A DNA stretch of 45,426 bases from an uncultured Syntrophales bacterium (GCA_964652795.1 CAZZBF010000001.1:49593-95018); one strand, 5' to 3'; counted from the first letter of the stretch, positions 16,572 to 37,807 are shown. A program made the numbers and translations. Notes: generated by a model from the sequence alone, not told the origin.

Positions 16572-16596
16572 TCGGCAAAAGGTTACCGATTGCCAT

Positions 16597-17676: not shown

Positions 17677-19026
17677 ATGAAAGAATTTATCAAAATGTGT
17701 GAGGTGAAAAATCCGGGTCAGCCGGAGTTTATCCAGGCCGTGTCGGAGGTTGCAGAATCGGTTAAACCTGTTTTAGACAAACATCCTGAGTACCGCAAGG
17801 CAAAGATAATGGAGCGGGTGGTTGAACCCGAGAGAACAATTATGTGCCGGGTTTCCTGGCTTGATGATAACGGCGAGGTTCAGGTCAGCAAGGGCTATCG
17901 TATTCAGGTGAATAGTGCCATAGGTCCGTTTAAAGGAGGCTTTCGCTTTCATCCGTCAGTCAATATGAGTATACTTAAGTTTCTCGGCTTTGAGCAGGTC
18001 TTTAAAAACGCACTGACAACCCTTCCAATGGGTGGCGCCAAGGGAGGATCGGATTTCGATCCCAAGGGGAAATCGGATAACGAAGTAATGCGTTTCTGCC
18101 AGAGTTTCATGACCGAAATGTTCAGACATATCGGGCCGGATACCGATGTTCCTGCAGGAGATATTGGAGTGGGTGCTCGTGAAATAGGATACATGTTCGG
18201 TATGTATAAAAAGCTGCAGAATGAATTTACCGGTGTTTTGACCGGTAAAGGTCTTGAATGGGGAGGAAGTCTCATTCGCCCTGAAGCTACCGGTTACGGC
18301 TGTGTCTATTTTGCCTCCGAAATGCTGGCAACAAAAAAAGATACCATGAAAAACAAGCTCTGTCTGGTTTCAGGTTCCGGGAATGTATCTCAGTATACTG
18401 TTGAAAAAATTTTGGAGCTGGGAGGAAAGGTAGTAACACTTTCTGATTCTTCTGGATACATCTACGATGAGAAGGGAATAAACAGGAAAAAACTCGATTT
18501 TGTCATGCACCTTAAAAATGTGGCACGGGGACGCATCAAGGAATATGCGGACAAGTATCCCGAAGCGGTTTATACTCCCATCGATCCCGCTCTTGATTAC
18601 AATCCACTTTGGAATCATAAGGCTGATTGCGCGTTTCCTTCCGCGACGCAGAACGAAATAAATGGCAAGGATGCTCAGAACCTGATCAACAATGGTGTCT
18701 ATGTAGTGGCCGAAGGTGCGAATATGCCCACAGTTCCAGCGGGCATTGACGTCTTTTTGGACAGTAAGATTTTATATGGGCCAGGGAAAGCAGCTAATGC
18801 CGGTGGTGTTTCTGTTTCTGGTCTTGAGATGTCCCAGAACAGCATGCGCTTAAGCTGGTCTCGTGAAGAGGTAGATAAACATCTTCACGACATTATGAGA
18901 AAGATACACAAGGCCTGTGTTGAGGCATCCGAAGAATACGGCACTCCCGGCAATTACGTAAACGGCGCCAATATAGCCGGATTTACAAAGGTTGCTAACG
19001 CAATGATGGCTCAGGGAGTAGTTTAG
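17677..19026 (+). CDS. gdhA: NADP-specific glutamate dehydrogenase
   Basis: Full-length GdhA-type hexameric GDH (KGGFRFHPSVNMSILKFLGFEQVFKNALTTLPMGGAKGGSDFDPKGKSD...). AGGAG RBS is present. Confidence 0.9.
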   Translation: MKEFIKMCEVKNPGQPEFIQAVSEVAESVKPVLDKHPEYRKAKIMERVVEPERTIMCRVSWLDDNGEVQVSKGYRIQVNSAIGPFKGGFRFHPSVNMSILKFLGFEQVFKNALTTLPMGGAKGGSDFDPKGKSDNEVMRFCQSFMTEMFRHIGPDTDVPAGDIGVGAREIGYMFGMYKKLQNEFTGVLTGKGLEWGGSLIRPEATGYGCVYFASEMLATKKDTMKNKLCLVSGSGNVSQYTVEKILELGGKVVTLSDSSGYIYDEKGINRKKLDFVMHLKNVARGRIKEYADKYPEAVYTPIDPALDYNPLWNHKADCAFPSATQNEINGKDAQNLINNGVYVVAEGANMPTVPAGIDVFLDSKILYGPGKAANAGGVSVSGLEMSQNSMRLSWSREEVDKHLHDIMRKIHKACVEASEEYGTPGNYVNGANIAGFTKVANAMMAQGVV

Positions 19027-19050
19027 TCAATCTATCTGACTGAAAACAAT

Positions 19051-19094
19051 AAGCGGTGGTTTCAGATGTAATGATGCCACCGCTTTATTTTATG
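19051..19094. terminator. Hairpin terminator shared by the convergent gdhA and cobQ genes
   Basis: AAGCGGTGG-17nt-CCACCGCTT followed by TATTTTAT on + and by ATTGTTTT on -. It overlaps the cobQ stop codon. Confidence 0.55.
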
Positions 19095-20527
19095 ATCAGG
19101 TAATTTCCCCAGCCACTTTTTCCTATTAATCCGGAAATCCTATCCAGTTCCGAGTCAATAACATCAAGCCAGTCTTCAGCCTTACCATTCCAACCCAATT
19201 GCGCCAAAAATTTCTGGCGGTAGGCAGCATTATCGAAAATACCATGCAGATACACTCCCCGGACATTTCCTTGCTGCCAACCTAAATCTTCTTCTATATA
19301 GGGTTCGGCCGACGGACCGGGCCGTGTAAACCCATGATGGATTTCGTATCCACGCACCAGGCTGCCGTCAACCAGTCGGACTTCACGTTGAACGGTGATT
19401 TTTTCGTGCATCAGGGTAGTCGTAACATCCAGCAATCCTAATCCTTCCTCGGTTCCGCCTTCCAGATCTTCCGGATCAAGCAGTTCCTTCCCCAGGATCT
19501 GCATCCCGCCGCAGATACCCAGTATCGGCAGTCCGTATTGCGCCATACGCATAATCTCCGCAGCAAGACCCGTTTGTCGTAAATATCTTAGACTCTCGAC
19601 AGTATTTTTGCTGCCCGGCAGAAGAATTGCCCTAAAGCTGTCCAGCGACATCATATTATTAACAGGCACAATATTTATGCCGCCTTCATGTATCAGAGAA
19701 TCAAATTCATCCATGTTGCTTGCATAAGGATACATGATCAGGGCGATATTGATCTTTTTCTGATCAAAATCTGAACGGTGAGTGAATGAATCTTCTTCGG
19801 GCAGTACATGCCTTATCATGGGAATAATGGCCACTGTCGGGATACCCGTCCTTTCCTGCAGCCAACCCATCGCATTGCCGAGCAATTTGTCGTCGCCGCG
19901 AAACCGGTTCAAAACAAATCCTTTTATAAGATCCTTTTCCTCTGAAGTCATGCACGACCAGGTACCGAGCAGGTGTGCAAATGATCCGCCACGATCAATA
20001 TCAGAAATAATATAAACGTCTGCTTTGCATTCCAGCGCCACTGACATGTTGACGATATCTTCTCTCCTGAGGTTAATTTCAGCCGGGCTACCCGCACCTT
20101 CAATCACCACCTGCTCAAATTCCCGTATCAGGGCCCATAAAGAGTCTTGAACGGCAGGCCACAATTTTGCTTTCCGGCCCAACCAGGGCAATCCGGTAAT
20201 TTCCGGACTGTACTGACCAAGAACGATGACCTGACTGTGTGTATCAGCACTCGGTTTGAGCAATACGGGGTTCATCCGCACCTGAGGTTCTACCCGCGCA
20301 GCAAGCGCCTGCAAATATTGGGCACGTCCAATCTCAAGGTGATCGGGCGTGACAGCTGCATTATTGCTCATGTTTTGGGCTTTGAAGGGTGCAACACTAA
20401 TCCCTCTGTTAGAGAAATAACGGCACAGTGCCGCAACCAGGAAGGATTTTCCGGAACCGCTCGTACATCCCATGATCATGATTGGCGTTCTGGAGACATT
20501 CAAATCTGATGACATGGTCATATTCAT
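19085..20527 (-). CDS. cobQ: Cobyric acid synthase (CobQ/CbiP), a glutamine amidotransferase
   Basis: N-terminus GCTSGSGKSFLVAALCRYF...APFKAQNMSNNAAVTPD...GRAQYLQA...VRMNPVLLKP is closely CbiP-like. The C-terminal GATase-3 domain carries ILGICGGMQILG. Several in-frame ATGs occur near the 5' end, so the exact start is uncertain. Confidence 0.8.
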   Translation of the reverse strand: MNMTMSSDLNVSRTPIMIMGCTSGSGKSFLVAALCRYFSNRGISVAPFKAQNMSNNAAVTPDHLEIGRAQYLQALAARVEPQVRMNPVLLKPSADTHSQVIVLGQYSPEITGLPWLGRKAKLWPAVQDSLWALIREFEQVVIEGAGSPAEINLRREDIVNMSVALECKADVYIISDIDRGGSFAHLLGTWSCMTSEEKDLIKGFVLNRFRGDDKLLGNAMGWLQERTGIPTVAIIPMIRHVLPEEDSFTHRSDFDQKKINIALIMYPYASNMDEFDSLIHEGGINIVPVNNMMSLDSFRAILLPGSKNTVESLRYLRQTGLAAEIMRMAQYGLPILGICGGMQILGKELLDPEDLEGGTEEGLGLLDVTTTLMHEKITVQREVRLVDGSLVRGYEIHHGFTRPGPSAEPYIEEDLGWQQGNVRGVYLHGIFDNAAYRQKFLAQLGWNGKAEDWLDVIDSELDRISGLIGKSGWGNYLIIK

Positions 20528-20621
20528 ACAAATAACTCAACTTTATGGCTCAGCATTAAATAAAAGAGTGAACACAGCTTACCGGTTTTGTATAATAAAA
20601 ACCCTCTATTCTTACAGATAG

Positions 20622-21401
20622 TTACACAACAGTACGAACCGGAACCCCTTCCTGTTCGAGATAGGACTTGATCTCCTCGACGGTATAGTGTTGGAAATGC
20701 ACCATGGAAGCAATGAGTGCCGCGTCCGCACCTGCTTTTACAAAAACATCCCTGAGATGCTCCGGCCTGCCGGCACCCCCCGAGGCAATGACGGGGATGT
20801 TCACCGCAGAGGATATCAAAGCTGTCAAATTCAGTTCATACCCATCATTTGTTCCGTCGGCATCAATAGAATTGAGACAGATCTCGCCGGTACCCATATC
20901 CCGGGCCTTTTTTGCCCACTCAACCGCATCAACACCCATAGGAGTCCTGCCGCCGTTTATCCAGACCTCGTATCCCGATGGTAGTTCAGCGCTCTTTCCC
21001 ACTTTTTTTGCATCCATCCCCAATACGATACATTGACTTCCGAAAATCTTCGCCCCTTCGGAAATCAGCTCCGGATTCAAAACGGCAGCGGTATTAACGC
21101 TGATTTTTTCAGCCCCGGCTTTTAATACATCATACATATCGGCAAGTGAACTGATACCGCCTCCCACTGAAAAGGGAATAAAGATGTTTTTTGCGACATC
21201 GCTTACTACATCGATTATAATTTTTCTCTTATCCGATGACGCGGTAATATCATAAAATACCAGTTCATCAACACCCTGGTCGTAATATTCCCTGGCCATC
21301 TCAACCGGATCACCGATATCGACATTGCCTTTAAATCTGATTCCTTTTGTTGTTTTGCCTTCTCTTACATCGAGGCAAATAATAATTCTTTTACTGAGCA
21401 T
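20622..21401 (-). CDS. hisF: Imidazole glycerol phosphate synthase cyclase subunit HisF, or a HisF-family paralogue
   Basis: [17 protein letters not shown]...[31 protein letters not shown]...[13 protein letters not shown]. The start ATG at 21401 lies 2 nt after the hisH stop codon. Confidence 0.85.
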
Positions 21402-21403
21402 TG

Positions 21404-22015
21404 TTATGCCGTCCCGTCCCACTCACAAAAATTTTTTAATATCCGAAGGCCGTGTCTTCCGCTTTTTTCAGGGTGAAACTGCATTGCGAGAACGTTCCCC
21501 TTCCCGATGATTGATGCAAACTCAACCCCGTATTCGGCCGTTGCTACGACGTCGTCGCGCCGCTCCGGATCGGGATAATATGAATGGACAAAATAGTATT
21601 GCGCTCTCTCATCAATACCGGCGAGAACGGGATGCGGGCGGACAGCGCTAATATTGTTCCATCCCATGTGGGGAATTTTCAAATTGGCAGTACGAAACTT
21701 TTTCGCACTACCCCGTATCACACCGAGACAGGAAGCGCTATTTTCTTCGCTCCTGTCGAGGACTATCTGAGCACCGAGACATATCCCCAGAAACGGGACT
21801 CCTCCGCCAATCACGTCATATATCACTTGATCGAGACCCGACGTTTTCATGACATCCATCGCGGCACCTGCCGCTCCAACGCCCGGTAATATGACTCTTT
21901 CGGCAGACAGTATTTCCAGCGGCCTGTCGGTTATACGGCACTCCTTACCTATGTGGACAAGGGCCCTCTCAACGGACGTAAGATTTCCCGCTTTGTAATC
22001 AATTATTGCTATCAT
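21404..22015 (-). CDS. hisH: Imidazole glycerol phosphate synthase glutaminase subunit HisH (class I GATase)
   Basis: [19 protein letters not shown]...[11 protein letters not shown]...[11 protein letters not shown]...HSYY. It overlaps the upstream GlmS-like gene's stop by 17 nt. Confidence 0.85.
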
Positions 22016-25000
22016 GCTCGTTCGATGAATCAGTCTCCTTTAATTTCATCATTTTGCCGACAATCATATCGACACCCTCGCCCAAGAGAAATTCAATAGA
22101 AATTTTGTCAAGGTACGTATCGTCCCAGTTAAGGTTATACTCATTGACAAGATTGAAGATTTTATTGAATTTATCTCCGAGAACTTCTTTCTTCTCCGCC
22201 GCCGTCAAATCGTCCCTGAAAACAACATGAAGTAGCAGGATATGTCTGATCCTATGGTTTTTACCCAGGACCGACATGATAATGATCGAAGCTTTATCCA
22301 ACTTCCCAAGTCCCGCATATATTTCTCCGGTTCTTATGATCGTTCGCTTGGTTCCCAGAAGAGCGCGTTTTTCTTCAACCCTCGATTTCATTTCCAGTGA
22401 AATTCCGCCTCTTTCACGAATTGATATAACTGTATCTTCTCCCGGGGTTCCGTCGACATCAAGATTTTCAACGTCATACAGGGTATAACCACGAATTTTG
22501 GATAGTGCCCCTTGGAGCCTTCGCGCGGCGGCCCCATCTTTGGTCGTAAGATTTTCCAGCGAAAATTCGAGATCTTTCAAGAAATCGAAGATGATTCCTT
22601 TGATCATTTCACCCTTTCTGCTTGTACCCACCGTAACGGTTTTCGCCTGGTGCCTGATTGCATCGATGGGGCGTGACAACTCATCGATGGCTTTGCCAAG
22701 ACAGATATCCAGCATGTCGAGAGGAGATGAGGAAATTCTTTTGTCTCTAAATTCTTCCCAGAAGTCCTCCAGCGGCAATTTTCCGATACTATACTTTAAA
22801 AGAAGCGGCATATCTGAGGCAATCTCGGTGCTCAGGGAAGAAAAAAAGCCCTTATTTTTTCTTAAATTAAATGCTTTGGTAAAATCCGCTACGATTTTAT
22901 GGAGTCCAGTGTTTGCAATCTTTTCGAAGAGTGTTTCGTTTCTGGCATCAAGTTCCAGCACCTTGTGTGATAAGGTATTCCTGAAATTCTTAAAAAATTC
23001 CCCTTCTTCATTAATACTGCAGGCCGCGTAATAACCCCATATATGTCCCGCTAACGTATTAAGTATGACCGCTGTAGAGAATGTTGACCTCGGGACGTAA
23101 ATGACCGAATCCGCCACATGATCAAATCTCGTTTCATCTTCGTCTGTAATGACAACAACCGATCCCTCATGAGCTTTAAAGATTGCAGCGTCTTTAACTA
23201 TATCTTCTACAACGGTTTCGGGGGTACCTGCCGCACAGACGATGATAAGCGGTTCGGCGGAAAGGTCTATATGTTTCTTGTTTTCCACTATATCGGACGA
23301 TATGGTCTTGTAACACAGTTCGCTCAACTTTATTCTGATCTCATCGGCGGCAACTTTATTTGAACCGCTCCCGACCACTGCCCAGTATTTCTTTTCTTTT
23401 ACAACGTCCCATGCCGATTCACGTATTTTTTCCTTAATAGCAATGACTCTGTCCATTTTTCCGGGAGCACCCTCCAGGTCGACGAGTTCCCTAGTGATTT
23501 GATCATCCGTCATTGTACCCGATATCTTTGCAAAATAGAGCGCGAGGATGTACCCGGCGATTATCTGAGAGTAAAATGCCTTTGTCGATGCAACGGACAT
23601 TTCTATATCTCTACCATCACTGGTATAAAAAACCCCATCGGTCATGTGGGTAATATCCGACTGTCGCCGGTTCACGATAGCTATGGAATGTGCTCCACGT
23701 TCTATTGCCATTGCAACCGCTCGATTTGTGTCAGTCGTCGTGCCCGATTGCGTAACCGCAATGACTAGGGCATGATCAAATTTGTCCTGGAGGGAAAATC
23801 CGCTTAATTCCGAAGCTGTCTTCGCCTCAATATGCAAGTCTCGACCCCTTAAATATTTTGAAAAAGCCTCAACTATTGCAGCGCCGGCTACAGCGGCCGT
23901 TCCCTGGCCTACGACAAAAATAGTTTTGATATTACCGTTTATAATTGCCTCCGACAATGCAGGGGGTATGATATCATTTCCCAGATTGAAGACAACGTTA
24001 TCAGTCGCTCCGTCCTCTTTATATTTTATATGATATTTGCCGCGCATCGTCTTTTGCGCGGAAAGGGGTGCCTCGAAAATCTCTTTCAACAGATAGTGGG
24101 GATAGCCCTTTCGATCGATATCGCGCGTGGTAATCTCCGCTTTCGCCACACAATTATCAGAAATAGGAAGAGCGTGTCCGTCGTAATACAAGGCCTTGAT
24201 TCCCTGAACACCTCCCCCGGCTTTTCGATCAAGGACAAAAATTTGTCCTTTCGTCGCTTGATCTCCCGGAACTCTTTCCGATTCACCATCCATCTTTATG
24301 AACTTAGATGTTACTTCCATCAGCCCGTATAATTCGGAGGAATACATGAATTGTTCGTCACAAAGGCCTATATAAAGAGACTGGCCGCTTCCGCGGAGCG
24401 CAAGAAATACTTTATCTGGTTCGAGGTCACTGCTCATGGCGATAGCGTGAGACCCTTCAAAATCATTCAGGGCAAGGCGAAAGGCCTCCAGAAGAGAGTG
24501 TCCCGAGGAAAGATACCGCTCGATCTGAAGTGGTACTATCTTCGTATCCGTTTTCACGGTATCGTCTATGAGTGATTGTCCTCCTGTTTCAATCCCCACC
24601 CTTAGTGTAGAGTAATTATCTATATCCCCGTTTAAAGCCGCATTGATTGACCAGTTCCCTTCTCCGTAGTGAGGATAATACTTTAGCGGCAAAAAAGATC
24701 CCGAGTCTTCATCGAATACTTTGTCCAGGGTGAAATTATTGATGGGATGACAATTTTCTTCAGTGATGGACCCCACCGATGCCCATCTTGTATGAGCCAT
24801 ATAGGAATCCATTGCAATCGGTTTATGAATAACCGTCTGGAATATCCGATCATTTCGGATTCGATCTCGCAAATACCTGCCGTTTTCCCCAAGTTCACCG
24901 GTTACCGATGCTTTTTTATACGTAAACGATAGAATGACCGGGATGCCTTCTCTGCCATTTTTTGTTGCGTGGATAGAACCGTCATGTAGATCGCCCGGTT

Positions 25001-25793
25001 CTACCCGGTTCAGCCATTCATCATAGAGATTTTTTGTTTTAAAATTCTCGATTAACGTATCGAGATCCTTCGTTTGCTCCATAGTAAAAGTGATTTGTAT
25101 ACCAGCAGAATCTCTCCCCCTTACCTCTAAATTGTCAATTGCATTTAATAACAGATTGATATTTCTGTATTTTCTAAGACTTTCCCGGGGAATATCCGCT
25201 TTTTTGTCCGTTCCGGCAAGAAAGAAAAATCCGTCAATATTGGCAAGGATGTCTTTTTCGAGGGCCCACGACGCATCTTTCAGACGAATGATCGAATTGT
25301 TAATATGTTCCATCTGTCCGGAGGTGAAACCGAACACATATTTTTCAATAAAGTCTTCTTCTTGTTCTATAAAGGCCTTCAGGTTCTCCGAAAGACGGGA
25401 AATATTTTGTATACCGTCATCCGTAAAAAAAACGTGCTCAAAAGTTGAATCTTCCTTCAAAATCTTGATAGCATTTTCTAAATCATTAAGTGCCGCTGGG
25501 CTTCCAAGGTAATCAACAGTATTCAGCGATTTATTGACTATTTTTTCTATACCGGTCCCCTGAATCACATTACAATTACTGGTAATGCGATTGACGATGT
25601 CATCGTCTCCGGCTGCGGCATCTCCTTTGATCGTAAGGATTCCCGCAAGACCGCACAACAGGGTATCGGGAAGAATAGGAAATAGAAGTATCGAACCGGG
25701 TGGCACAGTTCGAATATCACGCCCGATATAAATGTTTAGATACTTGAAAAAATTCCATATTCTTGCTGAAATTTTTTTGATGGGTTTTAACAT
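21999..25793 (-). CDS. Expanded (1264 aa) GlmS-family class-II glutamine amidotransferase with tandem SIS domains
   Basis: A 46-aa N-terminal leader precedes CGLAGIL (Ntn Cys). A ~190-aa insertion precedes RGRDSAGI, followed by HTRWASVG and NGDIDNY. The GlmS inter-domain linker KGYPHYLLKEIFEAP is present. Two SIS domains follow (GQGTAAVAG, VTQSGTTTDT) and a GlmS-like tail AKTVTVG. After that comes a ~230-aa C-terminal region of unknown nature. Confidence 0.7.
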   Translation of the reverse strand: MLKPIKKISARIWNFFKYLNIYIGRDIRTVPPGSILLFPILPDTLLCGLAGILTIKGDAAAGDDDIVNRITSNCNVIQGTGIEKIVNKSLNTVDYLGSPAALNDLENAIKILKEDSTFEHVFFTDDGIQNISRLSENLKAFIEQEEDFIEKYVFGFTSGQMEHINNSIIRLKDASWALEKDILANIDGFFFLAGTDKKADIPRESLRKYRNINLLLNAIDNLEVRGRDSAGIQITFTMEQTKDLDTLIENFKTKNLYDEWLNRVEPGDLHDGSIHATKNGREGIPVILSFTYKKASVTGELGENGRYLRDRIRNDRIFQTVIHKPIAMDSYMAHTRWASVGSITEENCHPINNFTLDKVFDEDSGSFLPLKYYPHYGEGNWSINAALNGDIDNYSTLRVGIETGGQSLIDDTVKTDTKIVPLQIERYLSSGHSLLEAFRLALNDFEGSHAIAMSSDLEPDKVFLALRGSGQSLYIGLCDEQFMYSSELYGLMEVTSKFIKMDGESERVPGDQATKGQIFVLDRKAGGGVQGIKALYYDGHALPISDNCVAKAEITTRDIDRKGYPHYLLKEIFEAPLSAQKTMRGKYHIKYKEDGATDNVVFNLGNDIIPPALSEAIINGNIKTIFVVGQGTAAVAGAAIVEAFSKYLRGRDLHIEAKTASELSGFSLQDKFDHALVIAVTQSGTTTDTNRAVAMAIERGAHSIAIVNRRQSDITHMTDGVFYTSDGRDIEMSVASTKAFYSQIIAGYILALYFAKISGTMTDDQITRELVDLEGAPGKMDRVIAIKEKIRESAWDVVKEKKYWAVVGSGSNKVAADEIRIKLSELCYKTISSDIVENKKHIDLSAEPLIIVCAAGTPETVVEDIVKDAAIFKAHEGSVVVITDEDETRFDHVADSVIYVPRSTFSTAVILNTLAGHIWGYYAACSINEEGEFFKNFRNTLSHKVLELDARNETLFEKIANTGLHKIVADFTKAFNLRKNKGFFSSLSTEIASDMPLLLKYSIGKLPLEDFWEEFRDKRISSSPLDMLDICLGKAIDELSRPIDAIRHQAKTVTVGTSRKGEMIKGIIFDFLKDLEFSLENLTTKDGAAARRLQGALSKIRGYTLYDVENLDVDGTPGEDTVISIRERGGISLEMKSRVEEKRALLGTKRTIIRTGEIYAGLGKLDKASIIIMSVLGKNHRIRHILLLHVVFRDDLTAAEKKEVLGDKFNKIFNLVNEYNLNWDDTYLDKISIEFLLGEGVDMIVGKMMKLKETDSSNEHDSNN

Positions 25794-25860
25794 TGTGTAA
25801 TTTACTCGTTATTTTTAATACATTAGAATGGATATCGTAGGCCGCACGGTGCGTATCAGC

Positions 25861-27477
<1,617 letters not shown>

Positions 27478-27514
27478 TTAACTTTCAGAATACTTATAAG
27501 ATTAACTTCACATG

Positions 27515-29668
27515 TTACGCTACATCTTCACTAACCAATTCTTCCAGAAATTCTGCCTGAATTGCACCTCGCGGGCAAATATTCACACACGTATAACAGA
27601 GGGAACACCGCGCGGGATCAATTGTGAAGATCTCCCCGTTCCGTGTAATCGCTTCCTGAGGACAGTTGTCGATACATTTATCACAATATATACAGGTACC
27701 GCAACTCATACACCGGTCTATATCTTCCTTCTCATCACCGAAATAAATCAATTGCATTCTCCTGGTCGGAACGAGCCGTTTTTCCGGATACACAAACTTC
27801 TTACCCGTAAGGTTCGCATCGATTTCCATGGCCGCCAGTCGACCCGAGCCAATCGCGTCGGTAAGAATCCCGGGTTTTACTATATCGCCGCATCCGTATA
27901 CTTTCTTGTTACTGCTTTTAGATGATTTATCGGCGGTAATCATGTACCCTCGTTCATCTATGAAGACAGATTCGTGTAAAAATGATGTATCAGGTGCCTC
28001 ACCGATACTGATGAAGACAACATCGGCCTTTTCAGGCTTTCCTTCCGTAAAATATACATTCTCCGAGTCAAGTTTTTTAACAAACTTCGGCCAGAGTATT
28101 TTGGTTCCCCTCTCTTCTGCCAGCATCAGTTCTTTCCCGAAGGCCAGCGGTTTTTGAATATCTACAGCCGTCACCATTTTAGCTCCAAGGCGCCAGGCCT
28201 CACAGGCTATATCCATACCGACATTACCGGCACCGATTATGACAACGTTTTTATCCGAAAGATCCATCGGTCTCCCTTCATTAATATCAATGAGAAACTG
28301 GAGACCCGAAAGTATCCTCTCACCGCCTTCATACGGTATCCTTTTGGTTACCTGTGCTCCAGTGGCTACAACGATGACATCACTTGCATCGTAAATATCC
28401 TGCAAAGATTCCCTGTCAATCTTTACACCCAGGTTAAATTCAATCGGGAGAGTTCTGATCCTTTTTATATCTTTGTCAAGCAATTCATCGGAGAGACGTT
28501 CCTGCGGAATTGCCTTTCTGGCTTTTCCTCCCAGGCTATCCATAGAATCGTAAACCTTGACCTTATACCCTCTCCGGGAAAGCTGCCACGCCGCCGAAAG
28601 TCCCGCAGGTCCGGCACCGATGATCGAAATAGTCTCGTTCTTCTTCCCCTTTATCGTCGGCTTGAAATTCGGATAATATTTCCGGGCAAGCTCCTGTACC
28701 GGGACAGGCCCGTCAATCAAGTTTCTGGTACATGCTTCCATGCATGGGGCAGGACATGTAGTACCACACACCGTCGTGCGGAATGGCGAGAACTCATCCA
28801 TTAAAAGCTGCGCTTCTTTTACTTTCCCGTCTTTTATCAAATTAAAAAATACCGGCGTCGGAATTCCCGTGGGACAGTTGAATGTACATGGAGGTGTCAG
28901 ATTGAAATGTTTCGGCACCTGTGTTTTTATATTCATTCCCGGAGTATATAAACTGGCAAACGGCCGGTGTCCCCGTCTCGTAATTTTCACAAAATCGTTA
29001 ACCGAAATACCGGACAGATCGATATTTATATCTTTCCCGTATTCCATGAGACTTGTCTTAAGGAATCCTGTGTCGTCTTTGTCCATATCCCCGAAGATAG
29101 CACCGGTTCCGAGCTGATATTTCTGCACGTCACCTCTAACATAAATAACACCTCCGTGGATCCCCGTTCCGACGCTGCCACCCACCGGCAATGATTTTCC
29201 TTCAAGATTAAGAACTATTACCCTTCCACCTGCCATATATTCACCGCAGTAATCTTTTGCGGTCCCTCCTATAATAAGCCAGGGAATCTGGTCAAAATAC
29301 TCTTTCATGTGGATGGCGGCCCTGTATTCGACATCTCCTTTAATAAAGACCTTGCCGCCCCGCATAGAATGTCCCGGTATCTCTCCCGCCTTTCCATGAA
29401 TTACTATTTTTCCGGCATTCATTGTATTGGCCAGACCATCCTGGGCGTTTCCGTAAACGATAAGGGTAGGACCATTTAAGAATGCTCCCAGGTCCTGTCC
29501 GGGTGTACCGTATATGTGAAATTCCGCGTTGCCGTCAAGACCGCCGGCGAGGTATCTCTGTCCCAGGACACCCTTGAGGACAATCTCTTTCTCACCCCGT
29601 GAAAGTAATCCCCGTATCTGCCTGTTTAACGTTTTGTAATATAATCCTTTTGCAACGATCGTGATCAT
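27515..29668 (-). CDS. Glutamate synthase GXGXG domain (GltB domain 3) fused to a GltD-like FAD/NAD(P) oxidoreductase and a C-terminal 2x[4Fe-4S] ferredoxin
   Basis: N-terminus GVLGQRYLAGGLDGNAEFHIYGTPGQDLGAFLNGPTLIVYGNAQDGLANTMNAGKIVIHG (GXGXG repeats). The middle carries CPTGIPTPVFFNLIKDGKVKEA...CGTTCPAPCMEAC and IIGAGPAGLSAAWQL (GltD-type). The C-terminus carries CMSCGTCIYCDKCIDNCP and CSLCYTCVNICP. Confidence 0.75.
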   Translation of the reverse strand: MITIVAKGLYYKTLNRQIRGLLSRGEKEIVLKGVLGQRYLAGGLDGNAEFHIYGTPGQDLGAFLNGPTLIVYGNAQDGLANTMNAGKIVIHGKAGEIPGHSMRGGKVFIKGDVEYRAAIHMKEYFDQIPWLIIGGTAKDYCGEYMAGGRVIVLNLEGKSLPVGGSVGTGIHGGVIYVRGDVQKYQLGTGAIFGDMDKDDTGFLKTSLMEYGKDINIDLSGISVNDFVKITRRGHRPFASLYTPGMNIKTQVPKHFNLTPPCTFNCPTGIPTPVFFNLIKDGKVKEAQLLMDEFSPFRTTVCGTTCPAPCMEACTRNLIDGPVPVQELARKYYPNFKPTIKGKKNETISIIGAGPAGLSAAWQLSRRGYKVKVYDSMDSLGGKARKAIPQERLSDELLDKDIKRIRTLPIEFNLGVKIDRESLQDIYDASDVIVVATGAQVTKRIPYEGGERILSGLQFLIDINEGRPMDLSDKNVVIIGAGNVGMDIACEAWRLGAKMVTAVDIQKPLAFGKELMLAEERGTKILWPKFVKKLDSENVYFTEGKPEKADVVFISIGEAPDTSFLHESVFIDERGYMITADKSSKSSNKKVYGCGDIVKPGILTDAIGSGRLAAMEIDANLTGKKFVYPEKRLVPTRRMQLIYFGDEKEDIDRCMSCGTCIYCDKCIDNCPQEAITRNGEIFTIDPARCSLCYTCVNICPRGAIQAEFLEELVSEDVA

Positions 29669-29671
29669 GTA

Positions 29672-31195
29672 TCAATCTCCGGCATGCTTAATTCCGAGAA
29701 TGCGCAATTCCTCGCTGTTCATGCCCACACCTCTCAATCGATTTCTATTTCCCCTTATCGCCTCTATAGCACTGATTCCCATGGACCCCATCAGTTCCTT
29801 GATCTCCTCTCCCCAAGCATGGAGGAGGTTTTTCAATGCCTCTGCCGCCTCACCCACATCGATCCTCTCAGCCAATCCCGGTTTGTTTGTCGTAATTCCG
29901 TACGGACACTTGCCGGTAAAGCACCGCTGGCACATACCGCATCCCAGTGATATGAGAACCGGTGTGGCTACATAAACCGCGTCAGCGCCAAGACAGATAG
30001 CTTTCAAAACATCTGAAGAACTTTGAATCCCTCCCGATGCAACAAGACTGACTTTATTCCTGATACCCTCTTCGGTCAATCGTCTGTCTGCTGCAGAAAT
30101 GGCAAGTTCAATAGGAATCCCCGTATTCTGGCGGATCTGAAGCGGCGTTGCGCCTGTACCGCCTCGAAAACCATCGATGGCGATAATATCCGCCCCGGCT
30201 CGGGCAATACCGCTTGCAATGGGAGCAACATTGTTAACGGCTGAAATCTTTACTGAAACCGGAATCTTGTAGTCAGTTGCCTCTTTTATTGCAAAAATGA
30301 GCTGTCTCAAATCTTCGATCGAATAAATGTCGTGATGAGGTGCCGGCGACAACGCATCGGTGCCTTCCGGGATCATCCGCGTCTGCGATATCGCTTCCGA
30401 GACCTTCTCCCCCGGAAGATGGCCGCCTATCCCAGGCTTTGCTCCCTGCCCTATTTTTATCTCCACTGCCGCAGCCGATTTCAGGTAGTCCTCGCTTACA
30501 CCAAATCGGCCTGACGCTACCTGGACGATTGTATTCTGTCCGTACTGTCTCAGTTTCTGATGAAAACCGCCTTCTCCCGTATTCCAGTAGGTTCCAACTT
30601 CCTTTGTCGCTATTGCTTCCGCTTCCTGGACGCGAAGATTCACGGCCCCAAAACTCATGGCTCCAAACATTATAGGAACTTCAAGCTGAAGCTGCGGACC
30701 AACTTCTCCCCCATAGTGGTCAGATTTGCCTCCAAGATATCGTCGAATCTCCATCGGTTCCCGGAGCGGATCTATCGAAGGGTTCGTTACCTGACAGGCA
30801 TCGAACATCATATGGTCAAAGTATCTCTTTTGAGGGCCTGTAGCCCCGGTTCCAACCAACAAAACGCCGCCTTTCGATCCCGCCTGGCGCCAGATATTGC
30901 TGACATGATGGGGCGTCCAGTACCCATGAGACGTATGCATAGGTTGATTAACAACGTGAATTGCTCGGTGAGGACACATTTTGACACATCTCTGGCATGC
31001 ATTGCAGGCGCTCATATTCGCCCACGGTTGATAGAGGACAGTACCGTTTCTCCCCTTGACAGGTTTCAGCGATATTTCTCCGAAGGAACATTCACCCACA
31101 CAGATCCGGCACCCGTTTTCATAGTCACACCGCAACAGGTCGAACTCTGGATAAAACGAAGGCATTATTTTCCAGTTATTCTTCATGTGAGCCAT
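29672..31195 (-). CDS. Glutamate synthase FMN-binding catalytic domain protein (archaeal-type GltB domain 2) with an N-terminal 2x[4Fe-4S] ferredoxin
   Basis: CRICVGECSFGEI...CNACQRCVKMCP, then a GltB central-domain signature (GAMSFGAVNLRVQEAEAIATKEVGTYWNTGEGG...VKISAVNNVAPIASGIARAGADIIAIDGFRGGTGATP). The ATG shares one nucleotide with the upstream gene's TAA. Confidence 0.85.
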   Translation of the reverse strand: MAHMKNNWKIMPSFYPEFDLLRCDYENGCRICVGECSFGEISLKPVKGRNGTVLYQPWANMSACNACQRCVKMCPHRAIHVVNQPMHTSHGYWTPHHVSNIWRQAGSKGGVLLVGTGATGPQKRYFDHMMFDACQVTNPSIDPLREPMEIRRYLGGKSDHYGGEVGPQLQLEVPIMFGAMSFGAVNLRVQEAEAIATKEVGTYWNTGEGGFHQKLRQYGQNTIVQVASGRFGVSEDYLKSAAAVEIKIGQGAKPGIGGHLPGEKVSEAISQTRMIPEGTDALSPAPHHDIYSIEDLRQLIFAIKEATDYKIPVSVKISAVNNVAPIASGIARAGADIIAIDGFRGGTGATPLQIRQNTGIPIELAISAADRRLTEEGIRNKVSLVASGGIQSSSDVLKAICLGADAVYVATPVLISLGCGMCQRCFTGKCPYGITTNKPGLAERIDVGEAAEALKNLLHAWGEEIKELMGSMGISAIEAIRGNRNRLRGVGMNSEELRILGIKHAGD

Positions 31196-32259
31196 TATGC
31201 TGTCCCTTGATCTGTTTCCTTTTGTATTTCGATGATGACCGGTTCGCCACCTCTGGGTGACCAGAGGCTTTCCACTTCAGGAGATAATAATCTGATACTG
31301 CACTCCTCGGACGATGCATAATAGGTATTGCCCGATCTGGCACAGACAACGGGACGGAGTTTATTCCTGTCATTCAGGACAATCGCACCGTCTTTGTGGG
31401 TCAGGACGATTCCGAACGGACCGTTCACAATAGCAGGACCGTAAATCTGTCGAAGATATCTCTTTTTTTTATCATTCGTCCTGTCTATTTCTTCCCAGAG
31501 CGATGGTGCCATGACATAGCATGCGTCTTCATCTGAGAGCCCATCTTTTCTTGTAAGTTTATCGAAGATGTAAGAAATTACCTCTGTATCCGTCTGCAAC
31601 ATGCAATAGTATCCGTACATCTGAAGCCACCGAAGATTCGTCCCATAACTGGTTATCTCTCCGTTGTGAACCACTGTCTTATCAAGAATCGTAAAGGGAT
31701 GGGCACCACCCCACCAACCAGGTGTATTGGTAGGAAACCTGTTATGAGCTACCCACATATACCCGGCATAATCCTGTATTCCGAAGTAGTCCGCAATATC
31801 TTCGGGATAGCCCACACCCTTGAAAACTCCGAGATCTTTTCCTGACGATACTACAAATACGCCTTCCATCTTGTTGATAGTCATAACGAGATCAACGATG
31901 TAATCCGCTTCGGTCTGTTGAGGTGATAAAAATTCCTTGATAGGTTTTAAAAAGTATCTTTTAAAATACGGTCCCTTCGGAATACGCTCGTTCGGATATA
32001 CGGGAATCTGCTCCGACTGGGTAATGTTCGTCCTGCTTGCCAGGTAATCTTCAACAACCGGTATAACGGAACTATTGCGATCCCCTTCGTACATGACGTG
32101 AAAAGCGTATTTATCCTTGTGATCAGGATAACAGCCATAGACAGCAAAGCCGCCACCAAGGCCGTTTCCCCTTTCCCGCTGGATTCGTATGGCTTCCCTG
32201 ATATGACTTCCATCAATAATCTGCCCATCGGTATTAACAATGCCAACGATTCCGCACAT
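31195..32259 (-). CDS. Glutamate synthase class-II glutamine amidotransferase domain protein (archaeal-type GltB domain 1)
   Basis: MCGIVGIV Ntn-cysteine start. Stand-alone ~354-aa GATase-2 domain. Confidence 0.85.
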   Translation of the reverse strand: MCGIVGIVNTDGQIIDGSHIREAIRIQRERGNGLGGGFAVYGCYPDHKDKYAFHVMYEGDRNSSVIPVVEDYLASRTNITQSEQIPVYPNERIPKGPYFKRYFLKPIKEFLSPQQTEADYIVDLVMTINKMEGVFVVSSGKDLGVFKGVGYPEDIADYFGIQDYAGYMWVAHNRFPTNTPGWWGGAHPFTILDKTVVHNGEITSYGTNLRWLQMYGYYCMLQTDTEVISYIFDKLTRKDGLSDEDACYVMAPSLWEEIDRTNDKKKRYLRQIYGPAIVNGPFGIVLTHKDGAIVLNDRNKLRPVVCARSGNTYYASSEECSIRLLSPEVESLWSPRGGEPVIIEIQKETDQGTA

Positions 32260-32290
32260 TGATGTATCTCCTTAGGTCGTTTTTGTAAAA

Positions 32291-33004
32291 TTACCTGCTT
32301 ACTCCGGTTTTCGAGGACTGACGGCACAAATCCACCAGCCACATGAAGTTTGAATAGATCATTTTTGCCTGGGCAAAAAAATCACGCTCTATTCCTCTAT
32401 ATACATCGATATACTCATGCAGTTCCGGTTTACCGTTAAACCATTCCATCAATATATCAGATGTAATCTCAACGTGGAACTGAAGGCCATACGCGTTACC
32501 ATAACGGAAACCCTGATTAGGACATCCATTTGCGGTTGCGAGTAATAGCCCTCCATGAGGAATTTCAAATGTGTCCTCGTGCCATTGAAACACTTTCATC
32601 ACATCCGGCAGTCCCTGAAAGAGAATATCTTGTTTCCCTTCATCGGTTACGAAGACATTTTTCCAGCCAAGCTCTTGCTCTGAAGCCTTCACTACCCTAG
32701 CGCCACAGACCCTGGCGATCAGCTGAGCACCCAAACAAATTCCAAGGATGGGAATATTGCTCTCTATGGCCTGCTCCAGAAACTCGGCTTCTCTTCGCAA
32801 AAAGGGGTATTTGTCTTCCTCATGAACATTCATCGGTCCGCCCAGAGATATGATGGCATCATATCTCTGGGCGACGGCAGGAATTCTTTCGTCTTTATAC
32901 AGCTTAACCGCTTTGATGCTTGCACCACAATATTTCAGAAACTCTTCAAGAGTACCCGCTCCTTCCGATGCGGCATGAGTAATGACGAGTACTTTTTTTT
33001 TCAT
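32291..33004 (-). CDS. Class-I glutamine amidotransferase (GuaA-N-terminal-like stand-alone GATase1)
   Basis: [12 protein letters not shown] catalytic Cys motif and downstream HED/HVE residues. ATG at 33004, 5 nt after the glnA stop. The listed longer ORF start is TTG. Confidence 0.7.
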   Translation of the reverse strand: MKKKVLVITHAASEGAGTLEEFLKYCGASIKAVKLYKDERIPAVAQRYDAIISLGGPMNVHEEDKYPFLRREAEFLEQAIESNIPILGICLGAQLIARVCGARVVKASEQELGWKNVFVTDEGKQDILFQGLPDVMKVFQWHEDTFEIPHGGLLLATANGCPNQGFRYGNAYGLQFHVEITSDILMEWFNGKPELHEYIDVYRGIERDFFAQAKMIYSNFMWLVDLCRQSSKTGVSR

Positions 33005-33009
33005 TATAA

Positions 33010-34344
33010 TCAAAGAATTGGCAAATATTTTTCCAGTTCATAATCACTGACATGCGTCCTGTATCTGTCCCATTCGATCTTTTTATTCGCAATGAACTTT
33101 CCAAATATATGGTCACCGAGAGCTTCACGAACGAGATCGCTTCCCTCAGTATATTGTATAGCTTCTCCAAGACTTCCCGGTAACGCCTCGATTCCTTTGG
33201 CCTCGCGTTCGGCAGGCGTCATTTCGAAAATATCTTCCTCTATCGGTGCAGGCAGTTCATACCCTTCTTCAATTCCTTTAAGTCCGGCAGCCAGCATGAC
33301 TGAAAAGGCAAGATATGGATTACAGGCAGGATCAGGACAACGAAACTCCATTCGCGTGGCATTTGCCTTACCCGGTTTGTACATGGGAACACGGATAAGA
33401 GCGGATCGATTTCTCCTTGCCCATGATATATAAACCGGCGCCTCGTAGCCCGGCACGAGCCTCTTGTATGAGTTCACCCATTGAGCAACAACTGAAGACA
33501 GTTCAGTCGCATGTTTCAGAAGTCCCGCAATATAACTTTTGCCGATACCTGATAAAAAATATTTATCTTTTTCATCAAAGAAGGCATTATCCGATCCTTT
33601 AAAAAGGGACTGGTGCACGTGCATTCCACTTCCATTTTCACCAAACACCGGTTTTGGCATAAAGGTTGCGTAAACGCCATGCGACATCGCTACTTCCTTG
33701 ACTGTAAGACGATATGTCATAGCCGCATCCGCCATTGAAAGCGCATCCGTGTATCGCAGGTCAATTTCATGCTGGCTGGGAGCCACTTCGTGATGGCTGT
33801 ATTCTACTTGGATTCCCATATCCTCGAGGGTTAAAATTGTGTCTCGCCGGAGATCACTTCCAGCGTCTAAAGGCGTAAGATCAAAATAACCGCCGCGATC
33901 AAGATATTCCGGTTTTCCATAGGCACTCTTGAAATAGAAAAACTCAAGCTCCGGTCCTACATTCATTGTATATCCCATATCAGCAGCCTTTTTTACGTTC
34001 CGTTTCAGAGCATAGCGGGGGTCACCTTCATAGGGGGTACCGTCTGGTTTTAGAACATCACAAAACATACGGGCTACATTCATCTCCTCGCTGGCGCGCC
34101 AGGGAAGAATAACAAAAGTCTCCGGATCAGGTTTTGCCATCATATCACTCTCTTCAATTCTCGCAAATCCCTCAATTGACGACCCATCAAAGCCCATACC
34201 TTCCGCGAAAGCACCTTCCAACTCAGATGGTGAAATAGCGAAGCTCTTTAAAAAACCTAATACATCAGTAAACCATATACGGATAAACTTTACATTTTTG
34301 TCCTTTACTTCTTTCAACACATATTCCACATCTTTTTTTGCCAT
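33010..34344 (-). CDS. glnA: Glutamine synthetase type I-alpha (444 aa, Bacillus-like)
   Basis: MAKKDVEYVLKEVKDKNVKFIRIWFTDVLG...FDGSSIEGFARIEESDMMAKPDPETFVILPW, MHVHQSLF and RVPMYKPGKANATRMEFRCPDPACNPYLAFSVMLAAGL. Its length of 444 aa, versus 473 aa for the second GS in this window, indicates the insertion-free I-alpha form. Confidence 0.85.
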   Translation of the reverse strand: MAKKDVEYVLKEVKDKNVKFIRIWFTDVLGFLKSFAISPSELEGAFAEGMGFDGSSIEGFARIEESDMMAKPDPETFVILPWRASEEMNVARMFCDVLKPDGTPYEGDPRYALKRNVKKAADMGYTMNVGPELEFFYFKSAYGKPEYLDRGGYFDLTPLDAGSDLRRDTILTLEDMGIQVEYSHHEVAPSQHEIDLRYTDALSMADAAMTYRLTVKEVAMSHGVYATFMPKPVFGENGSGMHVHQSLFKGSDNAFFDEKDKYFLSGIGKSYIAGLLKHATELSSVVAQWVNSYKRLVPGYEAPVYISWARRNRSALIRVPMYKPGKANATRMEFRCPDPACNPYLAFSVMLAAGLKGIEEGYELPAPIEEDIFEMTPAEREAKGIEALPGSLGEAIQYTEGSDLVREALGDHIFGKFIANKKIEWDRYRTHVSDYELEKYLPIL

Positions 34345-34489
34345 TTCTAATCTCCTTCAATTTTCAGTATCCGTTAATTCTATTTTCCCGACTACCCTTA
34401 ATCAGGTATAACATCTCTTCGGGACAAATTAGTTGCTTGATTACAATTGAAAATCTCTAAACATAGCTACCTATTCACAGTTTGTAATA

Positions 34490-34505
34490 GGCAACATGTG
34501 TGCCA
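34490..34505 (-). promoter_or_regulatory. Sigma54 (-24/-12) promoter for the GS-GOGAT-amidotransferase operon
   Basis: The minus strand reads TGGCAC-acatg-TTGCC (GG-N10-GC), about 145 nt upstream of the glnA ATG at 34344. Confidence 0.55.
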
Positions 34506-34638
34506 GATGACGAACATAAGATTGAAACAGGTTATCCTATTGATATTTTTACTGATATATTAACGTGATCGGTTGTCTTAGGAAAAATGCCGAGGAAATA
34601 AATTACATTTATGTAGGATTATGCGATGATGTCTACTT

Positions 34639-36210
34639 TTAGGTACGATATCGCTTGGTGTTTATATTAAATTTCTGTATCCGGAGACCGATAATCCTTT
34701 CACTTGTGCCGAGTATTTGTGCCGCCTTTGCTATATTTCCGCGGGTTGTCTTGAGTGCATCCATTATCAAATCTCTCTCCAGTCCCTCCAGCTCACCTTG
34801 AAGGGTACCATAGGGAATTGTACCCGTAGACGTTGATGTCTGAAGCGTTGGCGGGAGGTGGTATCCGTAAATAACACCTTCATTGCTGAGAAGTACGGCA
34901 CGCTCAATACAATTCTCCAGTTCCCGTACATTACCCGGCCAGTGGTAGCTCATAAGCATATCGATCGCGTGAGTACACGTTCGCTGAATCCTCTTATTAT
35001 TCGCTTTAGCGTATCTCTCCACAAAAAAGTCAGTGAGCAGCAATATGTCTGTTTTCCGCTCACGAAGCGGCGGGATATAGATAGGAAAGACATTCAATCG
35101 GTAATATAAATCCTCCCTGAATTTCCCTTCTTCCATCAGCTTTTCAAGGTTTCGATTCGTTGCGGCAATAATTCGTACATCGACTTTTATCGTGGTTGTC
35201 GCACCAACTCTTTCAAATTCCCGTTCCTGAAGCACCCTCAATAACCGTATCTGAACCATGGGTGGAAGATCTCCCACCTCGTCGAGGAAGATGGTGCCTC
35301 CCTGTGCCATTTCAAATCGACCTTTCCTCTCATGCGTTGCACCGGTAAAAGCGCCTTTCTCATGTCCGAATAGTTCGCTTTCCAGGACAGTCTCCGGTAA
35401 GGCCGCACAATTTACCTTTATGAAAGGTTTATTTGCCCTCAGGCTATTATAATGAATCGCGTTTGCTACTAATTCCTTACCGGTTCCACTCTCACCACGA
35501 ATCATAACGGTAGCGTTGCTTTTAGAGACCTGCGCGATAAGGTCATAGACCTCTTTCATACCCTTCGATTTTCCGATGATATTTGATGGTTCAAAGCGTT
35601 CCTTCAGCTCACTTTGCAGGCGCAGATTTTCTTGAATAAGTATTTCACGTTCTTCCTGTATCTCCTGACGAAGCCGTACTGCCTGAGCTACCATTGACGC
35701 AATAATTGAGAGCAGGCGCACATCCTCTTTGAGGGATATGGACCCCTCAAAGAGTCTGTCGGCACTCAGCGTGCCGATCACCTCCGCCCCTATTTTTATC
35801 GGTACACATATAAATGAAATATCCTCTTTTTTGAGGTCTTTACGGGCACCGGTTCTGTCTAAAAACATCGGCTCATTGGAAATGTGCGGAACTATGACGG
35901 GTTGACCCGTCTCCACAACTTTGCCTATAACACCCTCACCTATCTGATATCTTCCTCTTCTTCGCTGTAATTCCGATAGGCCATGAGCCGCTTCCATATA
36001 AATCTCTTCCGTTCTTCGATTAACGAGGGTCAGCGCACCCCGCGCCATGCCCATCCTTTCCGCCAGCGCATTCAATACAGGCCCCACCACTTCACGAAGG
36101 TCCATGCTGCGCCCGAGCGCCTGACTGACCTCCCAGAGAAGTTTAAGCTCCTTGATTTCTCTGTTGGATTTAACTTCCTTCTCTTCTTCAATACTTACCA
36201 TACTTACCAT
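34639..36210 (-). CDS. Sigma54-dependent transcriptional activator with GAF, AAA+ and Fis-type HTH domains (NifA-like architecture)
   Basis: N-terminal GAF ([19 protein letters not shown]...), then an AAA+ sigma54-interaction domain ([35 protein letters not shown]) and a C-terminal HTH ([16 protein letters not shown]). AGGAG RBS lies 9 nt upstream of the ATG at 36210. Confidence 0.85.
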
Positions 36211-36504: not shown

Positions 36505-36520
36505 TGGCACCATATTTGCT
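36505..36520 (+). promoter_or_regulatory. Sigma54 (-24/-12) promoter for the amtB-glnB-glnA operon
   Basis: TGGCAC-catat-TTGCT (GG-N10-GC), about 50 nt upstream of the amtB ATG. Imperfect inverted-repeat arms GTACCACCATTAT (36408-36420) and ATAAGTGGTAAT (36442-36453) lie 60-100 bp upstream as a candidate UAS. Confidence 0.6.
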
Positions 36521-36569
36521 TAGCACCAAATTGTAGTATTTGCGATAAATCAATTTGGAGGTTTTTGGA

Positions 36570-37796: not shown

Positions 37797-37807
37797 GAGG
37801 ATTAACA

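Follow-up and report, generated by a model that had tools for sequence, protein, structure and literature searches.

A putative glutamine-themed supraoperon of the sigma54 nitrogen-assimilation type, with an undescribed GlmS variant, in an uncultured Syntrophales bacterium

Gene content of the run

The DNA considered here is a stretch of 45,426 nucleotides (nt) from an uncultured Syntrophales bacterium (GCA_964652795.1, CAZZBF010000001.1:49593-95018), the whole of which is referred to as the window. Its central feature is a run of ten consecutive open reading frames (ORFs) on the minus strand, filling positions 19085-34344, in which genes for glutamine and glutamate synthesis are joined with genes for glutamine-hydrolysing amidotransferases. 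Genes were assigned to families with Pfam and NCBIfam, and NCBIfam scores are quoted in bits against the curated cut-off. The order is glnA, a stand-alone class-I amidotransferase gene (GATase1), three genes for a domain-split glutamate synthase (GOGAT), pyrG, a gene for a 1264-amino-acid (aa) GlmS-like protein, hisH, hisF and cobQ. This gene content had been given in a preliminary description of the same DNA and holds up, whereas the eleven consecutive genes counted there can be reached only by counting in the activator gene, which lies ahead of the promoter. From glnA to cobQ the junctions measure -4, 31, -1, 3, 46, 67, -17, -19 and 94 nt, so that none exceeds the 95 nt stated earlier, and start and stop codons overlap at four of them, which is taken to be translational coupling as read from the sequence.

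The first gene, glnA (33010-34344), encodes a type I glutamine synthetase (GS) of the short form (444 aa; TIGR00653, 536.7 bits against 429), in which a motif check found the adenylylation motif to be absent. The GATase1 gene (32291-33013; 240 aa, PF00117), whose translation contains the nucleophile motif GICLG and the motif FHVE, begins with a start codon overlapping the glnA stop codon. PRK07053 is the top NCBIfam match of this lone amidotransferase, under its cut-off; a weak Pfam match to Peptidase_C26 would fit a PuuD-like gamma-glutamyl hydrolase, and no synthase partner was found for it. A glutaminase translationally coupled to a glutamine synthetase looks like a futile cycle unless GATase1 feeds some partner.

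All modules of a domain-split glutamate synthase (glutaminase, flavin mononucleotide (FMN) synthase, GXGXG and reductase) are present across the following three adjoining ORFs. The first part (31195-32259; PF00310) is a class-II glutaminase of the N-terminal nucleophile (Ntn) type that begins with MCGIVG, its cysteine directly following the initiator methionine, and the second (29672-31195; PF01645, 8.6e-129) is the FMN/synthase domain with an N-terminal 2x[4Fe-4S] motif. The third (27515-29668; PF01493, Fer4_20, Pyr_redox_2 and Fer4) combines the GXGXG domain with a GltD-like NAD(P)H flavin reductase and a C-terminal ferredoxin domain. The split into three ORFs noted previously is therefore correct, but the last of them is a fusion of the C-terminal part of GltB with GltD.

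Downstream of the glutamate synthase genes lie pyrG (25861-27468), encoding a glutamine-hydrolysing CTP synthase (NF003792, 867 against 308), and the gene of the GlmS-like protein (21999-25793), which has an Ntn glutaminase and two SIS domains and is treated separately below. The start of hisH (21404-22015; TIGR01855, 218.6 against 105.4; motifs GICLG and FHPE), the glutaminase subunit of imidazole glycerol phosphate synthase, overlaps the stop of the GlmS-like gene by 17 nt. It is followed by the cyclase subunit gene hisF (20622-21401; TIGR00735, 352.6 against 294.55), for which 21401 is the probable ATG and 21422 the mechanical ORF start, homologues being 259 aa long. The HisF residues D11, K19 and D130 as well as the channel-gate residues are conserved when compared with Thermotoga maritima HisF. 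An assignment of the two proteins as sugar-amidation paralogues of the WbuZ/AglZ type was considered and rejected, since the models for those families score under their cut-offs, HisF passes and the catalytic residues are intact. The pair is found outside the hisB-H-A-F operon context, with neither hisA nor hisB adjacent. In the relatives, too, it stands apart from a his operon and comes after the GlmS-like gene or pyrG. The last gene of the run is cobQ (19085-20527; NF001989, 522 against 273), encoding cobyric acid synthase; glnA, pyrG, hisH, hisF and cobQ thus each score above their own curated cut-off. Six of the ten genes carry an amidotransferase domain, for which we estimate a chance probability of about 1e-11 per position on the assumption of a genome frequency of about 0.6%.

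Promoter, activator and terminator

A sigma54 -24/-12 element, TGGCACACATGTTGCC (34490-34505, minus strand), is situated 146 nt ahead of the ATG of glnA. It departs from TGGCAC-N5-TTGCW at one position and has GG at -24, GC at -12 and exact spacing. For comparison, relatives were gathered as 92 loci anchored on the GlmS-like protein, found by look-up or by scanning GTDB with one genome for each species, and these loci are cited here by their L numbers. The pattern taken in the window alone is not significant (15 matches against 17 expected) and such a count is what chance would give; the site is credible because it is conserved, an equivalent element with at most one mismatch being present in the same spacer between activator and first gene in all ten relatives that were re-examined (L001-L005, L086-L088, L091 and L092). 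An element likewise occurs in this spacer in L007. Inside the run there is no further sigma54 site with at most one mismatch, leaving only the promoter at its head.

Upstream of this element lies the gene of a NifA-type sigma54 activator, or enhancer-binding protein (34639-36210, minus strand), composed of GAF, AAA+ (PF00158, 7.4e-76) and Fis-type HTH_8 domains. Its GAFTGA loop is found at residue 286, it scores above the NCBIfam equivalog cut-off for NifA (TIGR01817, 564.5 against 528.85 bits), and its gene holds the same position in the same ten relatives, so that the earlier report of a sigma54 promoter beside a GAF-type activator is borne out for both parts. Directly 3' of the activator stop codon and about 100 nt upstream of the -24 element, the spacer alignments reveal a conserved block with the dyad TCCTACA-N3-TGTA (34604-34618, minus strand), the counterpart of which in L003 reads TCCTAC-N6-GTAGGT. 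We regard this dyad as a candidate binding site of the activator; across the whole window its pattern is not above chance.

At the other end, immediately after the cobQ stop codon, a hairpin with the stem AAGCGGUGG/CCACCGCUU followed by the U-tract AUUGUUUU (19043-19085, minus strand; -23.2 kcal/mol, z = -5.7) forms an intrinsic terminator with which the run closes at its 3' end. L086 has kept this terminator, and in L088 it comes directly after hisF. In L086 it is separated from the cobQ stop codon by about 118 additional bases (16713-16830), which contain a further GC-rich hairpin. No terminator-like site occurs in any internal gap, the three minus-strand matches all being located inside coding sequence, and in total such sites are rarer than in shuffled sequence (9 against 16.5); a convincing terminator is thus present only after cobQ, as had been proposed. 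A scan of the whole window with Rfam, aimed at a glutamine, glmS or B12 riboswitch, matched no family, and the glmS ribozyme is apparently not used here.

Conservation of the arrangement

Calling and clustering the ORFs of the 92 anchor loci yielded four recurrent layouts (A to D), of which A and B contain glnA and the GOGAT genes. Layout A, the type seen in the window, has the order activator, glnA, GATase1, the three GOGAT genes, pyrG, GlmS-like gene, hisH and hisF. The full order from glnA to hisF is kept in L002/L009, L086/L087, L088, L091 and L092, and the adjacency, whose restriction to a single strain had been named beforehand as the result that would speak against a functional unit, is consequently not unique to this strain. 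It is kept in part in L006, in L007 (without pyrG), in L003 (without glnA) and in L001 (without GATase1 and hisHF), and within this set the identity of the GlmS-like protein to that of the window goes down to 54%. In total, the order from glnA to hisF returns on at least eight further contigs, and the sigma54 element is found on every one of them. The lone GATase1 gene is retained in L002, L003, L007, L086, L088, L091 and L092.

The end of the run is variable among the closest relatives. The window and the 89% relative L086/L087 have a cobQ gene, which the 86% relative L088 lacks; together with the terminator abutting hisF in L088, this means that lineages differ by one amidotransferase gene inside the terminator boundary. 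To judge by the sequences, cobQ would have been either inserted in the lineage of the window or lost in L088. The same comparison reveals an oddity of glnA (33010-34344), which shares only 45% of four-fold degenerate sites with its counterpart in L088 (1456-2793), the value for neighbouring genes being 70-80%, an indication that glnA was replaced or recombined while the run around it stayed collinear.

Layout B attaches other amidotransferases to the same core, in the order activator, three GOGAT genes, glnA, carA, GlmS-like gene (followed by LbH protein, glmM and nagB-like genes), carB and pyrG, with gaps of 50-110 nt. It is found in L004/L005, L020, L024, L026, L035 and L038 and partly in L015, L030, L032 and L051, and L004 has a sigma54-like element of its own. 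Here carA, the glutaminase subunit gene, adjoins glnA, and the GlmS-like gene with its partners stands between it and carB. The LbH, glmM and nagB-like genes are the sole members in relatives that are not amidotransferases, and they are pathway partners of the GlmS-like enzyme. In addition, other Syntrophales-like genomes (L010, L023, L033 and L066) have guaA, either adjoining the GlmS-like gene and pyrG or placed between the two car genes, as in L066 with the order carA, guaA, carB. That different lineages attach different amidotransferases (carA/carB, guaA, cobQ) to one core is what selection on a shared nitrogen donor predicts, and the theme put forward in the preliminary description gains from it. 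Taken with the conservation of the arrangement, the glutamine amide as shared donor is a well-supported grouping principle, as far as gene content and order can indicate one.

The same loci could be read differently, as a cluster for envelope and nucleotide precursors whose theme is the supply of UDP-N-acetylglucosamine and nucleotides (GlmS-like protein, glmM, the acetyltransferase-like LbH protein, pyrG, carAB and guaA), the linkage to glnA and GOGAT reflecting the known tie between sigma54 and envelope precursors. The GlmS-like gene is indeed most often flanked by glmM, the LbH protein gene and the nagB-like gene, the products of carAB, pyrG and guaA are all nucleotide enzymes, and in other bacteria sigma54 has been tied to GlmS control and the cell exterior, although this link to GlmS is indirect and runs through GlmY/GlmZ (PMC3162934). 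However, hisHF, cobQ, the lone GATase1 and GS/GOGAT lie outside this theme while all of them fit the glutamine theme, the glmM, LbH and nagB-like genes are absent from the window's own run, and the position of carA next to glnA and apart from carB is not what it would lead one to expect. We consider a precursor cluster of this kind improbable.

The GlmS-like protein

The 1264-aa protein consists of a 46-aa leader, Cys47, a helical insert of about 155 aa, the Ntn glutaminase, two SIS domains, a second helical insert, the motif AKTVTVG and a C-terminal domain (residues 1064-1264) that may be of GAF/PAS type. In the alignment of homologues Cys47 is invariant (LLCGLAGIL) and the leader that precedes it is conserved. 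The GlmS motifs are split by insertions (LEVRGRDSAG, HTRWAS, LNGDIDN, TDTK, TQSGTTTDT, VASTKAF and E837/K840/H841), and the catalytic and binding residues R225, W337, N388-G389, D416, those of TQSGTTTDT and VASTKAF, E837/K840/H841 and K1051 are invariant. K1051 belongs to AKTVTVG, a tail motif that is usually C-terminal in GlmS and is internal here; the Escherichia coli GlmS equivalents were confirmed by HMMER alignment. The assignment to the GlmS family made earlier is upheld by the fold and the catalytic residues, but the protein misses the NCBIfam cut-offs for glmS (TIGR01135, 226.5 against 418; NF001484, 249.3 against 381).

AlphaFold models were made of residues 47-1246 and, separately, of the C-terminal domain. 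The former (predicted local distance difference test, pLDDT, 82; predicted template modelling score, pTM, 0.72) has GFAT-1 and E. coli GlmS as its best Foldseek matches, at about 2e-26, and its additional elements are the helical insert of about 155 residues, which comes right behind the nucleophile strand, a helical segment beyond the second SIS domain, and the C-terminal alpha/beta domain. With GlmS and GFAT the protein has in common the Ntn glutaminase and two SIS domains, equivalents of R26, W74, N98-G99 and D123, the sugar-phosphate loops of the SQSGET and VASTKAF types, residues of the E488/K485/H type and a tail motif of the Lys603 type, and an insertion in the glutaminase domain is also known from GFAT. 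It differs from both in its doubled length, the position of the catalytic cysteine at 47, the insert after the nucleophile strand, and the internal tail motif, beyond which lies the putative GAF/PAS-like domain of about 200 aa.

In propeptide-bearing Ntn amidotransferases such as Bacillus subtilis PurF and GltB, removal of a leader exposes the N-terminal cysteine. The GlmS-like protein resembles them in carrying a leader before its cysteine, and since Cys47 stands behind this leader, propeptide removal is predicted to be required for the N-terminal nucleophile to form; to our knowledge, leader removal has not been described for GlmS-type enzymes. We read the protein as a catalytically competent, propeptide-processed and allosterically regulated hexosamine-phosphate synthase, a reading based on sequence and model, and it is possibly the GlmS of the organism. 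It has at least 120 close, full-length homologues, most of them without a name; where databases give one it is 'SIS domain-containing protein' or (JGI) glucosamine--fructose-6-phosphate aminotransferase. With a family-specific C-terminal probe at least 584 GTDB species were matched, which points to an unnamed GlmS-related family of at least that many species. Leader and sensor-like domain suggest that hexosamine synthesis is controlled at the level of the protein.

These features also allow a bolder reading, in which the run would be a 'glutamine distribution' machine for nitrogen limitation that hands fresh glutamine preferentially to chosen amidotransferases, with the GlmS-like protein as an allosterically gated enzyme or even an assembly hub. 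Its helical insert and GAF/PAS-like domain would then serve to read a nitrogen or amino-sugar metabolite, the coupling of glnA with GATase1 and of the GlmS-like gene with hisH and hisF would reflect physical complexes, and the enzymes of the run could be an extra set specific for limitation. We attach a small chance to this proposal.

A proposed nitrogen-assimilation operon extended by glutamine consumers

The explanation that we favour, with a probability of roughly 0.6, is that of a sigma54 nitrogen-assimilation operon, driven by the adjacent activator, to which genes of the principal glutamine-consuming amidotransferases of the cell were added downstream. The core would consist of glnA and the domain-split glutamate synthase, switched on by the adjoining NifA-type GAF activator, and the lone class-I glutaminase, CTP synthase, the giant GlmS-like hexosamine-phosphate synthase, HisHF and cobyric acid synthase would have been added downstream of it in this lineage, with the single conserved intrinsic terminator closing the run. 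When fixed nitrogen is scarce, 2-oxoglutarate would be high and glutamine low; the activator would then open the sigma54 promoter, and the long transcript would raise both the synthesis of glutamine and glutamate and the amounts of the enzymes that have to compete for what glutamine is left. The flow into CTP, amino sugars, histidine/5-aminoimidazole-4-carboxamide ribonucleotide (AICAR) and corrinoid could thereby be maintained. We infer this physiological rationale, namely that consumer enzymes are raised with supply.

Several observations weigh against this explanation. Co-transcription of the 15-kb run as a single unit from the sigma54 promoter is presumed from the sequence, and that the activator senses 2-oxoglutarate and/or PII is an assumption taken over from NifA and other GAF activators. 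Internal promoters are possible in the gaps of 46, 67 and 94 nt or within coding sequence; a consensus scan, weak evidence that leaves room for them, detected no sigma70-like consensus in the gaps on the coding strand. Nor is the conservation of the gaps clearly above that of the four-fold degenerate sites of the flanking genes (80-98% identity between gltB3D and pyrG and 75-84% between pyrG and the GlmS-like gene, against 70-90%), but with relatives this close and gaps this short the comparison does not decide the matter. Furthermore, pyrG is essential in bacteria generally, as a sole GlmS would be, and to have them under an exclusive nitrogen-limitation promoter would be risky.

The remaining objections come from the other two layouts and from a relative with two pyrG genes. 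In layout C, the majority type of Syntrophaceae and Smithella, the order is moaC, a small HTH_8 protein gene, LbH, GlmS-like gene and pyrG (in some cases followed by glmM and the nagB-like gene), and glnA, GOGAT and the sigma54 element are lacking. Layout D, of Smithellaceae, reads GlmS-like gene, nrpR, gdh, LbH, glmM and pyrG. As neither has the promoter of the run, the GlmS-like gene and pyrG can be expressed independently of it. One relative, moreover, has two pyrG genes on the same 2.59-Mb contig, one (L001, 8374-9984) in a run of GS, GOGAT, pyrG and GlmS-like gene and the other at the head of a separate pyrG-hisH-hisF unit (L089, 3715-6780), where hisH and hisF follow pyrG even though the GlmS-like gene is absent. 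The two copies share 76% identity, and 77-78% with the pyrG of the window, and a second pyrG in a relative implies that the genes of the run may be extra copies or have internal promoters.

From these observations it could be argued that only glnA and GOGAT, perhaps with GATase1, are regulated by sigma54, and that pyrG, the GlmS-like gene and hisH-hisF are an older housekeeping module that has docked onto them with its own constitutive promoter or promoters, in which case read-through would be minor and the glutamine theme without regulatory meaning. Most loci indeed have pyrG and the GlmS-like gene, in some cases along with hisHF, glmM and LbH, but no glnA or GOGAT. Of 41 loci from GTDB species in which the anchor has 5 kb or more to either side, pyrG is present in 29, at least three amidotransferase genes in 11 and GS/GOGAT in about 8. 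The essential functions argue for constitutive expression, and the largest gaps lie exactly at the borders of the modules. On the other hand, no terminator or coding-strand sigma70-like consensus separates these modules, and their join is kept across relatives as divergent as those of layout A. Other lineages have evolved a different join, glnA-carA-GlmS-like-carB-pyrG, cobQ sits inside the terminator boundary, and neutral drift hardly explains the repeated recruitment of amidotransferases and their partners only. We therefore think it rather unlikely that the run is a docked module of this kind, while giving it serious weight.

For the favoured extended nitrogen-assimilation operon, the nearest documented system is that of Desulfovibrio vulgaris, in which GS, the split GOGAT genes DVU1823-1821 and other operons of nitrogen metabolism and transport are the predicted targets of the one-component activator DVU1949, the predicted regulon including no other amidotransferases (PMC4641369). 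As in this system and in the enterobacterial glnALG operon with NtrC, a sigma54 promoter precedes glnA and/or the split GOGAT genes and a GAFTGA AAA+ activator is encoded nearby. In contrast to NtrBC systems, the activator of the run is a one-component NifA-type GAF protein; it agrees with NifA in its GAF-AAA+-HTH architecture and in passing the equivalog cut-off, but no nif genes are found in the window or in the 10-kb flanks of relatives, and its adjacent target is glnA/GOGAT with the genes that follow. The run further differs from glnALG and the DVU1949 system in joining GS and GOGAT in one unit and in continuing with five further amidotransferase systems that extend into pyrimidine, amino-sugar, histidine and corrin metabolism. 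We know of none of these five in the described Ntr, DVU1949, TnrA, GlnR, AmtR or NtcA regulons. The preliminary description knew of no such arrangement, and a full-text literature search found no published description of a GS/GOGAT operon with several amidotransferases, of a giant GlmS or of a bacterial NrpR in these lineages.

As a rule, an operon brings together the genes of a single pathway. Mixed-pathway supraoperons are known, for example the aromatic/histidine supraoperon of B. subtilis, in which genes of different pathways form a long co-directional unit. There the link is metabolic neighbourhood, whereas in the run it is the co-substrate, glutamine amide nitrogen, along with the enzymes of glutamine synthesis. 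The apparent grouping principle would thus be a shared co-substrate, with the makers of glutamine joined to its pyrimidine, amino-sugar, histidine and corrin spenders and with carbamoyl-phosphate and GMP synthases swapped in by related lineages. Our verdict is that the run is best placed as a co-substrate-themed supraoperon of the sigma54 nitrogen-assimilation type with an undescribed GlmS variant. If it is co-transcribed from the sigma54 promoter, it would be natural evidence that cells meet glutamine scarcity by raising consumer enzymes with supply, and priority allocation of glutamine would become directly testable in a slow-growing, energy-limited syntrophic group.

The surrounding nitrogen island

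The preliminary description had treated the run as a regulon, a term that is too narrow, since the island extends to amt-glnK-glnA2, nrpR-gdh and asnB. Divergently from the run, a perfect sigma54 element, TGGCACCATATTTGCT (36505-36520, plus strand), heads a second nitrogen unit (36505-39589) with amt (36555-37796), glnK (37808-38146) and glnA2 (38168-39589), all on the plus strand, the last encoding a 473-aa protein without the adenylylation motif NLYDLP. An amt-glnK pair under a second sigma54 promoter is a further likeness to systems of the glnALG and DVU1949 type.

On the other side, an NrpR-type regulator gene (16549-17616; PF01995 and HTH_12, no NCBIfam match) and the adjoining NADP-glutamate dehydrogenase gene gdh (17677-19026), both on the plus strand, converge on the terminator of the run. 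In Smithellaceae this pair directly follows the GlmS-like gene (L043, L057, L062, L065, L072 and L073). NrpR is otherwise known from methanogens. The protein encoded here shares the PF01995 NrpR domain with the methanogen regulator and lies at the edge of the island, next to gdh; it differs in its bacterial host and in the operator, as GGAA-N6-TTCC has a single match in the window (10963), at chance level, and none near any promoter of the island.

A second, small candidate regulator is encoded in relatives. A Fis-type protein of about 104 aa, consisting of HTH_8 only, is found upstream of LbH, the GlmS-like gene and pyrG in L012, L021, L022 and about 25 other loci, that is, in genomes without GS/GOGAT linkage, and it may regulate that module.

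Beyond the second nitrogen unit and outside the run, asnB (41154-42737, minus strand), which encodes a glutamine-hydrolysing asparagine synthase, follows a Band7/SPFH gene and is the seventh amidotransferase-domain gene within 24 kb. Towards the opposite end of the window, a second GltD-like flavoprotein gene (6939-8372, minus strand) is grouped by BLAST with the reductase portion of the GOGAT fusion. It adjoins an 836-aa ORF and the gene of a NuoF-like Fe-S flavoprotein (10969-12786), and the genes of this minus-strand cluster (6939-12786) look like those of a separate NAD(P)H/ferredoxin oxidoreductase complex.

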